From the IMG/VR virus record IMGVR_UViG_2695420539_000011, positions 1 to 5,245 of that record: DNA of 5,245 nt; one strand, given 5' to 3'. The DNA is from a virus (Duplodnaviria; Heunggongvirae; Uroviricota; Caudoviricetes). Below, one piece after another: positions 1,762 to 5,245 of this stretch (the stretch's first letter is position 1; each line of letters opens with the position of its first letter). The notes below the pieces were generated by a model. That model had not been told where the DNA came from. It made no database searches and saw only the letters and a program-made list of their open reading frames with translations. Position numbers and translations under genes: made by a program.

Positions 1762-1849
1762 GAAACGTTGCTGGCGTCTGAACCTGCTTCTGGCGTCAGC
1801 AAGGTTGAACCGCGAGCCTTGAGAGGCGTTAACCATAAGTAAAAAGACA

Positions 1850-1972
1850 GTAATCATTTGATTATCTATCAGGGCGAGACCTATGCTGCACTTTTAGTTA
1901 TAACTCATAATGTATTGAAATTATTAGAATATATGTCATTCTTAAAATGTGTATGCTTATCAAGGAGCAAGA
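1850..1972 (+). promoter_or_regulatory. AT-rich upstream region of the cargo gene, presumed to contain its promoter; RBS AAGGAG at 1962-1967
   Basis: Very AT-rich stretch with several imperfect -35/-10-like hexamers (for example TTGAAA 1915-1920, CATAAT 1906-1911, TAGAAT 1925-1930), none in a convincing pairing, so the exact promoter is not called. The RBS is clear. Confidence 0.3.
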
Positions 1973-2845
1973 ATGAAACGTGGCATTGTAGCTAATCCTA
2001 ATGAAATGAGTTTTCATAGAAATAATAGTACGGTCTATCTTGGGGCAGGTTTAACTGAGCAGGATATTAATTATTTCTGCTTTTACTGGGATGATGTGGT
2101 TATTCTAGATAGTGAAAATATTCACTCGATTGTGCCTAAAGAAAAAGAATTATTAGATAATGGGGTATTACGTAGACCTATTATGAAACATGATGGTATG
2201 CTGAATATCCAAGACTTTCCATTTTTATATACGGAATTTCAGTTGCAGACATTGGATGAATTCAGGAAGAACGAGCCTGCTACTTATTGGCACTTTCATC
2301 AAACAGGGGAAAATTTAATATATGATAAAGAACAGAAAACGGCCCTTCAGTTGAGATTGGAGTTGTTTAATGTTCTGAGAATTCCTGATAAAGATGCTCA
2401 TATAGAAGATATATTACGTTTTAAAGATGATTGTCAGGATGATCTTAATGCGTTACATGAGTACTTAGAAAAACTGTATACTGAAGTCCTTTATTCTAGA
2501 GACCCTAATCTAACGAGGGCTAAAAATTTTTCTTTATTACAAGAGGCTGTAGTTAATCTTGATAAAGCTATCGAAGGGAAATGGAGAAATCCTATCAGAA
2601 TGGGAGTCAAAGCCAATCCAGAAGTAGATGGTGGGCAGGTTATGGAATTTTTAAAACCGTTGTACCATGCTGCTATTGCTGGTTATTCAGGCGGTATTAT
2701 TCCCGGTATGGTTACAGCCTTGGCAACCGCAATTCCAAGTTTTATAAAATTCCAACCAGAATGGGTGGGCTTTAGAGATAAGGGGCCTAAAGAATTAGCT
2801 TATCTTACCAAAGCAACGCATAAGGGGTTGATTAAGAGAGCTTAA
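1973..2845 (+). CDS. Hypothetical protein, 290 aa, AT-rich cargo gene at the tin/old-equivalent position; candidate phage-defence or exclusion protein with a C-terminal hydrophobic (putative transmembrane) segment
   Basis: Long uninterrupted ORF. ATG at 1973 with RBS AAGGAG 5 nt upstream; the track's GTG at 1949 is in frame but lacks an RBS. Stop TAA 2843-2845. Marked drop in GC relative to the flanking phage genes. Hydrophobic, Gly/Ala-rich stretch around residues 227-259 (AAIAGYSGGIIPGMVTALATAIPSFI). I recognise no similarity to any protein family. Confidence 0.7.
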   Translation: MKRGIVANPNEMSFHRNNSTVYLGAGLTEQDINYFCFYWDDVVILDSENIHSIVPKEKELLDNGVLRRPIMKHDGMLNIQDFPFLYTEFQLQTLDEFRKNEPATYWHFHQTGENLIYDKEQKTALQLRLELFNVLRIPDKDAHIEDILRFKDDCQDDLNALHEYLEKLYTEVLYSRDPNLTRAKNFSLLQEAVVNLDKAIEGKWRNPIRMGVKANPEVDGGQVMEFLKPLYHAAIAGYSGGIIPGMVTALATAIPSFIKFQPEWVGFRDKGPKELAYLTKATHKGLIKRA

Positions 2846-2946
2846 GGCATTTTAATCGATTTTCGCAACTATATTCCTTCGTAACCACACAAGTGCATGA
2901 CTATGCCGCATGAATCCGCATGATCGTTTGAGGATCGTTTTAGCTG

Positions 2947-2976
2947 AGGCCCGCTAGGAATGGCGGGCCTTTGCTT
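2947..2976 (+). terminator. Putative rho-independent terminator for the cargo gene transcript
   Basis: GC-rich inverted repeat AGGCCCGC (2947-2954) / GCGGGCCT (2963-2970) with an 8-nt loop, followed by a T-rich tail TTTGCTT (to 2976). About 100 nt downstream of the cargo gene stop. Confidence 0.5.
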
Positions 2977-3017
2977 ATGTCATGCAGGCGCATGAAAACC
3001 ACTACATAAAGCGGGCA

Positions 3018-3036
3018 GGCGTGGCGGGGATACGAG
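3018..3036. other. Putative cos (cohesive end) site of the P2/186 type: GGCGTGGCGGGGATACGAG
   Basis: From memory, the first 13 nt (GGCGTGGCGGGGA) match the 19-nt cohesive end of phage 186 (GGCGTGGCGGGGAAAGCAT) and nearly match P2 (GGCGAGGCGGGGAAAGCAC). Located about 160 bp beyond the end of Q, in the expected orientation and position. The last 6 nt diverge, so exact termini are uncertain. Confidence 0.4.
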
Positions 3037-3120
3037 CGCGCGCAACGGGGTAAAATGGCCAAAATCCGGCGCAGCCTCTGGCCCGCTGGCAGCCTCATTT
3101 TGCGTAGGGGGAAAATGTCA

Positions 3121-3160
3121 GGACAAAAAGAAACGCCCCGCAGAATGCTGCTGGGGCGTT
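3121..3160 (-). terminator. Putative rho-independent terminator of the P-Q packaging operon
   Basis: Inverted repeat AACGCCCCGCAG (3132-3143) / CTGC(T)GGGGCGTT (3148-3160) with a 4-nt loop and one bulged T. On the minus strand it is followed by the T-rich run TCTTTTTGTCC (reverse complement of 3121-3131). Lies 35 nt downstream of the Q stop. Confidence 0.55.
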
Positions 3161-3195
3161 GTGAGAATTGGTCAGTTATTGATGTTGTGAGTATG

Positions 3196-4242
3196 TCAGC
3201 CTCGTTTGCTCTTAAGTCCTAAGTCATAGGTTTCAAAACGGATCACCTTTTCACCCAGCCAGTTGTTAAGCTCCAGCAGTCGCTTTTGCAGTGGCATCAG
3301 CTCATTGCGGACGAAAACACGGCTCGCCTTTTCCACATCACCGAAGCCGCCAGTGTTGTTGGGAATGATACCCATCATTTGCGGCGGTACGCGGTGTGCC
3401 GCCATCATGTCGTCCCGACTCACGTTCTTGATGTTCAGAAATTCATCCTTCGCCGCGACTTCCGACAACGGGATGATCTGAAGCCCGTCCTTTTTGCCGT
3501 TAGGCGAGTACATAAACAGGTTACGGAAGTTACCAGGACCTTTGGCACTTTTCATTGCGTTGCGGAGGTTGTTCACATCCTCCTGGTTCTGCGCGGCGTC
3601 GGTCATGTACATGATGAAGCCCGCATGGCTGCCGTTAATGTAATACTTCCGGCGGAACAGCGTGGCGGACTCGTTGAGCAGGGCGGATGGAATGGCAGAA
3701 AGGTAACCTGGCAGACCATAAATCTCCTGGTTGATATCCGGCTCCATCAGGTGGAAGACGTTACCTTTTGTGAACTGATACGGCTGTGTCGTCAGGCTGT
3801 ATTGCACAAACCAGTAGGTATCCAGGTCTAACCCGCGTCGGGTGTATTTTGCCAGCGCAGGTTCAAGGGCGATAACTTCACCGAAGCGGTTCGTGCGTTT
3901 CTCCAGGTAGGCGTTACCAAATACCAGATAGTCCTGCACAAAACGTGAAAAAGCCTGCTGGCTGAGCAGTGGGTGAGGGATATAGGTGCTGGTCAGAATG
4001 TTGCACTTTACTGCAATCGGTGAGCTGTGGTGTACGGCGGCGCGGAATGTTCGCGCCAGGCCGTCGAAACTCACAGGCGGCTCATACCAGCGGTCCATCT
4101 GTACGCATTCCACATAGTCCAGCAGTTCGCGGCGGTCAAGTACTGGAACGGGATCACCGAAGCTGAATGCTTCGGCTGAAGTCTGGCTTTTATGCTGAAT
4201 CTGGTTCGTCGACGCAGCGCGGTTCTTCTTACTCTTTCCCAT
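3196..4242 (-). CDS. Q: Portal protein (P2 gpQ-like), 348 aa
   Basis: Minus-strand ORF of portal-typical size immediately downstream of the terminase gene, with the P2-family gene order cos-Q-P. ATG at 4240-4242 (minus strand) with GGAG 8 nt upstream; the track's 4245 start is an in-frame TTG one codon earlier. Stop TGA at 3196-3198. Confidence 0.85.
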   Translation of the reverse strand: MGKSKKNRAASTNQIQHKSQTSAEAFSFGDPVPVLDRRELLDYVECVQMDRWYEPPVSFDGLARTFRAAVHHSSPIAVKCNILTSTYIPHPLLSQQAFSRFVQDYLVFGNAYLEKRTNRFGEVIALEPALAKYTRRGLDLDTYWFVQYSLTTQPYQFTKGNVFHLMEPDINQEIYGLPGYLSAIPSALLNESATLFRRKYYINGSHAGFIMYMTDAAQNQEDVNNLRNAMKSAKGPGNFRNLFMYSPNGKKDGLQIIPLSEVAAKDEFLNIKNVSRDDMMAAHRVPPQMMGIIPNNTGGFGDVEKASRVFVRNELMPLQKRLLELNNWLGEKVIRFETYDLGLKSKRG

Positions 4243-5245
4243 CAAAAAATCTCCACAATATTGCTGGTATTGGCGGACTCGCCCTGCAGCGGTTCGTTAA
4301 ACAGTGCGTGCATTGTTGCCCAGGCCAGATCGGCGTGGCTGGCTTCTTCGCTGCGGCTGGCTTCATAGGTCGGGCGGTTGCCGCTGGCGGTGGTTGCGCG
4401 ACGGATTGCCATGAATGACTGCGCAATGTCGGTGTGTCCGGCGTCAAACTCCAGACGGCGGTGGCTGATAATGTCGTAGGCCTTGAGTACCAGGGCATTT
4501 TTAACATTGGGGTTATAGACAAACTCCCGGACGGCAGGAAAGAAAGCTTTCACGTTCTCATAAACCCCGTGACCAACGCCGGTCGAGTCGATACCGATAT
4601 ACGTAACGTTGTACTGTTCGGTGAGTTTTTTGATGGCGTCAGCCTGGGCGCGGAAGTCCATCCCGCGCCACTGGTGACGCTCAAGAATGCGGAACTTACC
4701 ACCCGGCACGGCTGGCGGAGCCACCACCACGCATCCGGCACTGTCGCCGTTCTGCGTACCTTTTGCCGGGTCATAACCGATCCACACTTCGCGCCAGCCA
4801 AACGGGCGCAGCGCCAGTGCATGAAAGTCGGTCCAGACTTCCCAGCTGTCCACCATGCACGCCTGCAGCTCGCTGAGCGGGAACACGGACGCGAGATCGT
4901 CCACGAACTCACACATCAGCAGGTTCTGGTATTCGTCCGGGCTGTACTCCATGCGCAACTGGCCGAGGTCGAACAGGTTACAGCCACCGCGCACCGCATC
5001 TTCCACGGTGACTATCTGGCGGTATTGCCCGTCTGCGCACAGCAGGCCGGGTGCCAGATTGCTGTGGGACAGGTCGATGTCCACCTTGTCAGCTTTGTTG
5101 CGCCCACGGTTGAACAGCGCACCGGACCAGAACGGATAAGCACTGTGGGTCAGACTGGATGGTGTGGAAAAATAGGTCTGCCGCCATTTCTTGTGAATAG
5201 CCATACCGGAAGCCACTTTGCGTAGCTCCTGAAATTTCGGTATCC
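4242..5245 (-). CDS. P: Terminase ATPase / large subunit (P2 gpP-like); C-terminal ~334 codons, 5' end outside the window
   Basis: Minus-strand frame is open from the window edge (no stop between 5216 and 5245; the track's 5216 start is an internal GTG) to TGA at 4242-4244. The C-terminal region is consistent with a terminase nuclease domain. Position directly upstream of, and overlapping, the portal gene. Confidence 0.85.
   Translation of the reverse strand, partial: IPKFQELRKVASGMAIHKKWRQTYFSTPSSLTHSAYPFWSGALFNRGRNKADKVDIDLSHSNLAPGLLCADGQYRQIVTVEDAVRGGCNLFDLGQLRMEYSPDEYQNLLMCEFVDDLASVFPLSELQACMVDSWEVWTDFHALALRPFGWREVWIGYDPAKGTQNGDSAGCVVVAPPAVPGGKFRILERHQWRGMDFRAQADAIKKLTEQYNVTYIGIDSTGVGHGVYENVKAFFPAVREFVYNPNVKNALVLKAYDIISHRRLEFDAGHTDIAQSFMAIRRATTASGNRPTYEASRSEEASHADLAWATMHALFNEPLQGESANTSNIVEIF

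Follow-up and report, generated by a model that had tools for sequence, protein, structure and literature searches.

What is the AT-rich stretch of about 1 kb that interrupts the core genes of a P2-like prophage in the first 5245 nt of the virus record IMGVR_UViG_2695420539_000011 (Caudoviricetes; here the window), how did it come to be there, and why does its composition differ from that of its neighbours? The window is a segment of a P2-like (Peduoviridae) prophage that is 99.3% identical, across all 5245 nt, to the chromosome of Escherichia coli 22-245, and Peduoviridae records match its backbone at 91–97%. We conclude that positions 1832–2891 are, with high probability, a swappable cargo cassette made up of a single gene, lodged in the hypervariable hotspot around the cohesive end site (cos) of P2-like phages, in the slot nearer to gene A. 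The gene (1973–2845, + strand) encodes a 290 amino acid protein, RefSeq WP_053901735, that belongs to Pfam family DUF6236 (PF19749).

An initial annotation, made from the sequence alone, had described a sharp AT-rich island at 1840–2900 between GC-balanced genes. We found that this interval has a GC content of 0.354 and lies within 10 nt of the breakpoints in homology to related phages, and the A/T-rich string quoted for it, ttattagaatatatgtcattcttaaaatg, was located at 1921–1949. Bounded by those breakpoints, the island (1832–2891, + strand, 1060 nt) has a GC content of 0.354, compared with 0.529 in the rest of the window (z = −10.2), or 64.6% AT over 1060 nt compared with 47% AT in the remaining window. 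It is the lowest-GC interval of 1060 nt in L001, a 13 kb prophage stretch in which the median is 0.529 (comparison loci are given here as L numbers). Within the island, the 141 nt leader at 1832–1972 has a GC content of 0.298 (70% AT) and the coding sequence 0.362. GC at third codon positions (GC3) is 0.29 in the cargo open reading frame (ORF) and 0.52–0.70 in the five flanking genes. In the sliding-window GC plot that had been proposed as a check, there is a clear drop at both junctions, with GC contents of 0.56 and 0.29 in the 100 nt to either side of the left junction and 0.37 and 0.54 at the right.

Among the flanking genes described as GC-balanced, gpA is at 0.526, Q at 0.531 and P at 0.579, and the DinI-like gene, at 0.462, is intermediate. 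The small gene orf62 is at 0.450. When the window was segmented by maximum likelihood, the best model was a single broad low-GC segment at 1151–2905 (Bayesian information criterion 7191), and the four- and five-segment models, with breaks at 1831–1836 and 2875, were slightly worse (7195–7199). As this broad segment is preferred and orf62 and the DinI-like gene are at 45–46%, the fall in GC content at the left edge of the island starts from a region that is itself intermediate and not from 53%. The backbone also has an AT spike of its own (1236–1305; GC 0.214) in the A/orf62 intergenic region (1177–1328; GC 0.342), which is 96% identical in L002 and L003, falls inside the conserved 1–1831 block and is therefore backbone and not cargo. 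The spike is presumably a promoter or regulatory region. Because the backbone itself includes such a spike, AT-richness alone is no marker of cargo.

The evidence that the island is a cassette comes from comparison with related phages. Homology detected by blastn extends over 1–1831 (approximately 96%) and from approximately 3284 to 5245 (91–93%), with a separate block at 2892–3053, and the breakpoints relative to L002–L004 are at 1831/1832 and 2891/2892, in agreement with junction alignments and segmentation. In L002 (CP019275) and L003 (phage vB_EcoM-813R9), the equivalent of position 1831 is fused directly to the 2892–3053 block, and 1832–2891 is wholly absent. As L002 and L003 are empty sites, 1832–2891 is a discrete 1060 nt cassette. 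A different cargo lies between the DinI flank and the cos block in L004. The cassette consists of the AT-rich leader and one intact ORF, with 82% of the island made up of conserved coding sequence, and it is present at 99.4–100% identity in 22 of 5426 complete E. coli genomes. Among the further matches listed, only about 60 nt of the cos-block flank is shared. The proposal of the initial annotation, that a cargo module was placed horizontally into a conserved backbone, is thus supported, though by comparison and not by composition: the interval is missing from backbones that are approximately 96% identical on the gene A side (L002 and L003), and an 88% identical copy of the gene is found outside any P2 context.

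These data also bear on whether the low GC content might reflect a backbone function of DNA near cos, such as packaging, bending or regulation, and not foreign cargo. The conserved AT spike at 1236–1305 is a precedent for AT-rich backbone DNA and the island does abut cos. However, L002 and L003 have the same cos block without 1832–2891, which refutes this explanation, and the coding ORF that occupies 82% of the island is under purifying selection (ratio of nonsynonymous to synonymous substitution rates, dN/dS, of 0.12 relative to an 83% identical homologue). We regard its chances as negligible.

How cassettes are exchanged can be considered from the junctions. We propose that they may be swapped through recombination within conserved flanking sequence, on one side the 3′ flank of the DinI-like gene, with its hairpin, and on the other the cos block. 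Insertion by a dedicated mobile element (an insertion sequence, transposon, integron-like cassette or site-specific recombinase) is very improbable. An imperfect direct repeat of 8–9 nt that includes an indel is present at the two junctions, as CGTTAACCA at 1828–1836 and CGT-AACCA at 2883–2890, and the 88% identical homologue adjoins a resolvase gene and an IS110 transposase gene, both of which could be taken to favour such an element. However, the repeat is short, is represented in the empty sites of L002 and L003 by CGTTA only and is absent from the L009 junctions, and is probably due to chance or microhomology. Neither a transposase or recombinase ORF, in the list of ORFs, nor terminal inverted repeats, in a repeat search, were found in or around the island, and transposable elements are almost non-existent in these hotspots (NAR 2026, PMC13586616), where rapid swapping of cargo has been confirmed (PMC13586616).

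The hotspot itself is known, and neither it nor the cos site just downstream of the island figured in the initial annotation. It lies between gpA and gpQ beside cos, and 1650 gene arrangements were recorded in 18 150 loci (Rousset et al. 2022, PMC9122126). Besides old and tin of P2, its cargo takes in many defence systems as well as partition systems and a cytolethal distending toxin (PMC9122126). The cassette is found between gpA, which ends at 1176, and Q, is adjacent to cos, represents variable content on flanks that are 91–97% identical, and has already been catalogued. An identical 290 amino acid protein is system #125, ‘DUF6236’, with 23 occurrences, in Table S5B of Rousset et al. (PMC9122126). 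DUF6236 appears in the catalogue tables only and was not among the systems tested in that study (PMC9122126). In another genome, WP_053901735 is followed by a PIN_12 protein (Table S5A; PMC9122126), a neighbour that fits the presence of two independent slots.

The region of P2 that contains tin and old (the TO region) occupies the same position as the cassette, from gene A to cos and Q, and has the same contrast in GC content, with tin at 0.329 and old at 0.348, whereas A is at 0.532 and Q at 0.534. In both, cargo is swapped as an all-or-none unit between backbones that are nearly identical. Thus, the compositional island is an ordinary pattern, that of the textbook P2 tin/old slot, and its cargo protein is already catalogued. 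There are also differences. The cargo here is one DUF6236 gene that shares its strand with gene A, whereas transcription of old and tin in P2 runs leftward from a promoter close to cos, and in this lineage, unlike in the P2 TO region, orf62 and the DinI-like gene are located between gene A and the slot. A phenotype is known for old, tin and the other validated hotspot systems, whereas the DUF6236 cargo is known here from its sequence.

A moron, a concept that goes back to Hendrix and Juhala, is an autonomous extra gene found between conserved phage genes, with its own promoter and terminator and an atypical composition. The cassette likewise is an extra gene, of strongly deviant GC content, between genes that are adjacent in relatives, and it appears to have a conserved promoter-like element upstream and a hairpin downstream. 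However, a moron has a terminator of its own, and the downstream hairpin here belongs to the backbone block.

The position of the cassette relative to the packaged genome follows from that of cos. The conserved cos block (2892–3053; GC 0.562) is 86–91% identical in L002–L004, where it directly follows the DinI flank (L002 and L003) or the other cargo (L004), and it is also conserved in L005, L009 and L013. It includes a predicted 19 nt cohesive end, GGCGTGGCGGGGATACGAG, at 3018–3036, placed there by alignment to P2: at 80%, positions 2986–3030 match the right end of the P2 genome and continue into its cosR as annotated, GGCGAGGCGGGGAAAGCAC. The cassette ends 126 nt short of the 19 nt cos end, and its gene is, given this position of cos, the rightmost one in the packaged genome, like old in P2. 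We observed that the gpA–gpQ hotspot comprises two cargo slots split by the conserved cos block, and as cos lies between them, the slots form the extreme right and extreme left ends of the packaged genome. Only the A-side slot is filled in the window, only the Q-side slot in L002 and L003, and both in L004, L005 and L042. The spans of hotspot and cos that were compared are 2892–3195 in the window, 2345–4265 in L002, 2338–3720 in L003, 2377–5072 in L004, 8995–10836 in L005 and 5147–6514 in L042.

In the window, the Q-side slot (3054–3195) is empty, with only the terminator of the Q/P operon inside it. This terminator (3132–3160, − strand) is a hairpin followed by a U-run (free energy, dG, −20 kcal/mol; z = −4.4), and tQ of P2 is annotated at the equivalent place. 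Unrelated genes fill the Q-side slot in relatives (L002, 2591–4265; L003, 2569–3720; L004, 3330–5072; L005, 9151–10836; L042, 5147–6514), and among their products are a Hypoth_Ymh protein, an AIPR/Abi protein, an AAA_15/21 ATPase and a 455 amino acid hypothetical protein, together with a frameshifted hypothetical gene. Homology in Q restarts only at approximately 3284 relative to L002 and L003, and at 3234 relative to L004 (window positions 3196–3283). Because of this late restart, the last 13–30 or so portal codons and the terminator region appear to vary together with the Q-side slot.

If the island is a cassette, does its low GC content record a recent arrival? The initial annotation had taken the abrupt shift as an indication of horizontal acquisition. 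Horizontal placement is correct, as set out above, but the step in GC content is not evidence for it, as low GC is the steady state in homologues that are saturated with synonymous change. Every DUF6236 homologue examined has a GC content of 0.33–0.39 and a GC3 of 0.23–0.34, in backgrounds of 0.36–0.56. Those found in the P2 slot with 60–72% amino acid identity have proportions of synonymous differences (pS) of 0.78–0.85, which is saturated, and still have a GC3 of 0.25–0.34 in backgrounds of 51–55% GC. For saturated homologues taken together, the hosts and phages that carry them are at 49–56% GC. The unrelated hotspot cargo of relatives is at 0.35–0.40, with one at 0.45. Since low GC is kept across saturated homologues, unrelated cargo and P2 tin and old, we conclude that it is a maintained trait of a circulating cargo pool and not the fading trace of a recent low-GC donor.

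Acquisition from such a donor, recent enough that the composition has not yet drifted to the E. coli or phage average, would account for the strong contrast in GC and GC3 with the flanking genes. It would also suit the rarity of the cassette (22 of 5426 genomes) and the fact that some family members come from low-GC taxa, Winogradskyella and Acinetobacter among them. However, it would not predict the low GC3 retained by the saturated homologues in the P2 slot, the same composition in copies from lambdoid prophages that share only 28–46% identity, or the GC content of 33–40% in unrelated hotspot cargo and P2 tin/old. In addition, the cargo has diverged from its L013 counterpart much as the backbone has (72% and 67% nucleotide identity, respectively). 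We therefore consider a recent donor improbable. Retention of a GC3 of about 0.3 through saturating divergence and in unrelated cargo supports the view that low GC in prophage cargo is selected or at equilibrium, and its persistence is consistent with a role for H-NS of the host as a regulator of cargo, and not with use of GC content as a clock of recent transfer.

The initial annotation had also named the island as a likely target of H-NS. That H-NS binds the 1 kb, 65% AT stretch and thereby damps expression of the cargo is plausible, and indeed probable. The AT content of the island is well above average over several hundred bp, as is characteristic of H-NS targets. In a P2-like prophage of E. 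coli BL21, H-NS chromatin immunoprecipitation (ChIP) peaks were found on the lowest-GC cargo genes in the same hotspot, and deletion of hns derepressed prophage cargo and revealed defence (preprint, bioRxiv 10.64898/2026.09.05.749240). The cassette is the same kind of element, in the same hotspot, as the H-NS-silenced prophage immunity loci described there, which include retron Eco1 in the P2-like prophage of BL21 and Lit and Kunado in e14 (bioRxiv 10.64898/2026.09.05.749240). The BL21 prophage likewise combines low-GC cargo with a GC-normal P2-like backbone, though its cargo gene and the strain differ from those here.

Within the leader, a putative sigma-70 promoter of the extended −10 type was identified by conservation at 1915–1942 (+ strand). 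It comprises a −35 hexamer TTGAAA (1915–1920), a 16 nt spacer, TGt (1934–1936) and a −10 hexamer CATTCT (1937–1942). Only two blocks, ATATTGAAA and ATGTCATTCTT, are conserved in the otherwise diverged upstream regions of L042, L043 and L013 (72–83% identity). A Shine–Dalgarno sequence, AAGGAG (1962–1967, + strand), lies 5 nt before the ATG at 1973, where RefSeq also starts the gene, and is conserved in L041 and L042. The cargo would be transcribed in the lysogen from this promoter-like element (TTGAAA, 16 nt, TGtCATTCT), and the transcript may end at a hairpin in the backbone (2942–2975, + strand). This GC-rich hairpin (inverted repeat I5; dG −25.6 kcal/mol; z = −4.2) is followed by UUUGCUU, resembles a terminator for rightward transcripts and is conserved in relatives. 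It has a short U-run and sits in the conserved cos/backbone block, outside the cassette. Two observations may count against this account of expression and silencing. The putative promoter matches the consensus at 8 of 12 positions and a consensus scanner made no call there; the same promoter and terminator scanner also missed the tQ hairpin. The high-affinity H-NS motif TCGATAAATT, allowing up to two mismatches, is not enriched, with six matches in the window, four of them in the island, compared with 5.1 expected.

The cargo protein matches DUF6236 over its full length (75.3 bits, against a cutoff of 26.2; E = 6.5e-21), and all 95 relatives aligned match the family as well. It also matches PHROG 23128, to which no function is assigned in that database. 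The family forms about 1003 clusters at 50% identity (E ≤ 1e-3), nearly all of them stand-alone proteins of 280–300 amino acids, and a word-indexed profile search added just four further distant relatives. Just one kind of domain fusion was seen, an N-terminal SEC-C zinc-binding motif in the family representatives P0053 and P0157 (E = 3e-7 and 8e-11). A scan of the cargo protein against NCBIfam gave no match, the PHROGs scan gave no functional name, and a literature search brought up no paper with DUF6236 or PF19749 in its main text. The 95 relatives gave only scattered single weak matches to PADLOC-DB v2.0.0.

An AlphaFold model built from 95 homologues (predicted local distance difference test score, pLDDT, 84; predicted template modelling score, pTM, 0.83) replaced a first, poor model from 13 close homologues (pLDDT 60). 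It has an alpha/beta domain (residues 1–136), a long helical hairpin (144–200) and a C-terminal part with beta-strands and, at 221–252, low-confidence hydrophobic helices rich in Gly and Ala. This C-terminal segment is the hydrophobicity maximum family-wide, and it may, speculatively, be the part through which the product acts. A possible HEPN motif (Rx4-6H) in the conserved helix FKxRRxDELxALH was rejected, as the spacing does not fit and the protein encoded in the window has no arginine there.

Relatives of the gene recur in two kinds of prophage. Other Enterobacterales have copies with 60–83% identity in this P2 slot (L009–L013, L042, L043 and a P2 remnant in Hafnia). Copies with 28–46% identity were found in lambdoid/HK97-like prophages or viral contigs, at least 10 in all, in a slot that separates the lysis cassette from the packaging genes. 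L044 has a 59% identical copy after the lysis cassette, at the end of a contig. The loci with the lambdoid slot are L014, L018, L022, L028, L031, L033, L034, L036, L037, L039, L040 and L044 (28–59% identity). Most have a conserved packaging block (485 amino acid protein, 196 amino acid protein, HNH, TerS–TerL) farther downstream, and the copies are at about 36–39% GC in backgrounds of 49–57%.

Elsewhere, two small Acinetobacter plasmids (L046, 4934–6882, which is Acinetobacter lwoffii pALWED1.3, and NZ_CP094256) have a HEPN gene that ends 21 nt before the DUF6236 gene. The pair may form a two-gene operon, which may hint at a defence-type partnership in some lineages. In two Vibrio phages, the DUF6236 gene is the terminal gene and is beside an HNH endonuclease gene, and one metagenomic copy has Imm_superinfect, NERD and HNH genes as neighbours. 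The 88% identical copy outside the P2 context (L041, 482–1354; protein P0002) is beside resolvase and IS110 transposase genes. Its homology to the window begins just 25 nt or so before the ATG, and the promoter block is not shared; relative to the window copy its dN/dS is 0.58, with differences clustered at residues 10–35. An AAA_15/21 ATPase gene is near DUF6236 in the Hafnia remnant. That remnant (Hafnia alvei L005/L006, 8001–11449) is a degraded P2-like element that keeps only the DUF6236 gene, cos, the AAA_15/AAA_21 ATPase gene, a portal fragment and ogr. There, the cargo of the hotspot has persisted longer than the phage. Overall, the distribution of the family points to an accessory gene in the competition between mobile elements.

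From its setting, the cargo product may act in competition between phages, by defence, exclusion or abortive infection (Abi), a proposal to which we give only slightly less than an even chance. That DUF6236 is a new anti-phage family is a tentative reading, at best nearly even and possibly well below that. A more specific version would make it a new single-protein Abi or exclusion family with a fold outside the PDB, consisting of a sensor-like alpha/beta N-terminus, the helical hairpin and a conditionally membrane-active C-terminus. It would be tuned by H-NS and carried in a permanently AT-rich cassette that circulates between cos-proximal slots of P2-like and lambdoid phages. Taken as a whole, this version is unlikely.

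Several observations weigh against a role in defence or a membrane-active C-terminus. None of the hidden Markov models in PADLOC-DB v2.0.0 matches the cargo protein at E ≤ 1, sequence searches of the PDB with two profiles found nothing below E = 0.06, and the model has no significant fold match in the PDB or BFVD. Given no PADLOC model, PDB relative or fold match, it is location that the defence role rests on, and the hotspot also holds the partition systems and cytolethal distending toxin noted above (PMC9122126). One distant homologue is chromosomal and sits beside biosynthetic genes with no phage nearby. The C-terminal segment is borderline for a membrane helix (19-residue Kyte–Doolittle maximum 1.55; family median 1.45), and Table S5B records no transmembrane domain for the protein, nor any signal peptide or note (PMC9122126).

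Some of these points would equally suit cargo that is not anti-phage and has some other lysogenic-conversion or selfish function, such as that of a moron affecting host physiology or virulence, of an anti-defence factor or of a toxin of the addiction type. Such functions have precedents in the same hotspot, and the missing PADLOC match and the homologue in a non-phage chromosomal setting agree with them. Only about one-third of the hotspot systems tested defended against the panel of Rousset et al. (PMC9122126). We consider this a serious possibility, at appreciably less than an even chance. However, the gene is found repeatedly in accessory slots of two temperate phage lineages that are unrelated to each other, and its neighbours there and elsewhere include HEPN, NERD/HNH, Imm_superinfect, PIN_12 and AAA_15/21 genes. 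The protein has neither a signal peptide nor a virulence-like domain, and there is no antitoxin-sized partner ORF in the cassette. A role in phage–phage competition is retained as a modest lead. DUF6236 is a widespread family, found in two prophage lineages and without a fold or defence-model match, and is a sensible, low-cost choice for a defence screen. Because the boundaries, cos, the empty second slot and the promoter-like element are mapped to the nucleotide, the cassette can be cloned directly.

The remaining features of the window belong to the backbone. The 3′ part of the gpA replication endonuclease gene (1–1176, + strand) was recognized by Pfam Phage_GPA (E = 5.8e-44) and is annotated as ‘replication endonuclease’ by RefSeq in L001. 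It is followed by orf62 (1329–1517, + strand), which encodes a small conserved hypothetical protein (RefSeq) in PHROG 698, without an assigned function there, and by the DinI-like gene (1528–1761, + strand; Pfam DinI, E = 1.3e-22; RefSeq). On the other side of cos are the portal gene Q (3196–4242, − strand; Pfam Phage_portal; RefSeq) and the 3′ part of the large terminase gene P (4242–5245, − strand; Pfam Terminase_6N and Terminase_6C; RefSeq). A scan of the window against Rfam returned no RNA family. A 55 amino acid ORF at 3055–3222 (+ strand), which extends across the tQ terminator into the 3′ end of Q and has no homology support, is probably spurious. Directly 3′ of the DinI stop codon there is a strong hairpin at 1764–1806 with an 11 bp main stem (segment 1762–1831, dG approximately −28 kcal/mol, z = −2.3). 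It has no U-run, ends about 25 nt before the left junction, and is kept in L002 and L003 and not in L004.

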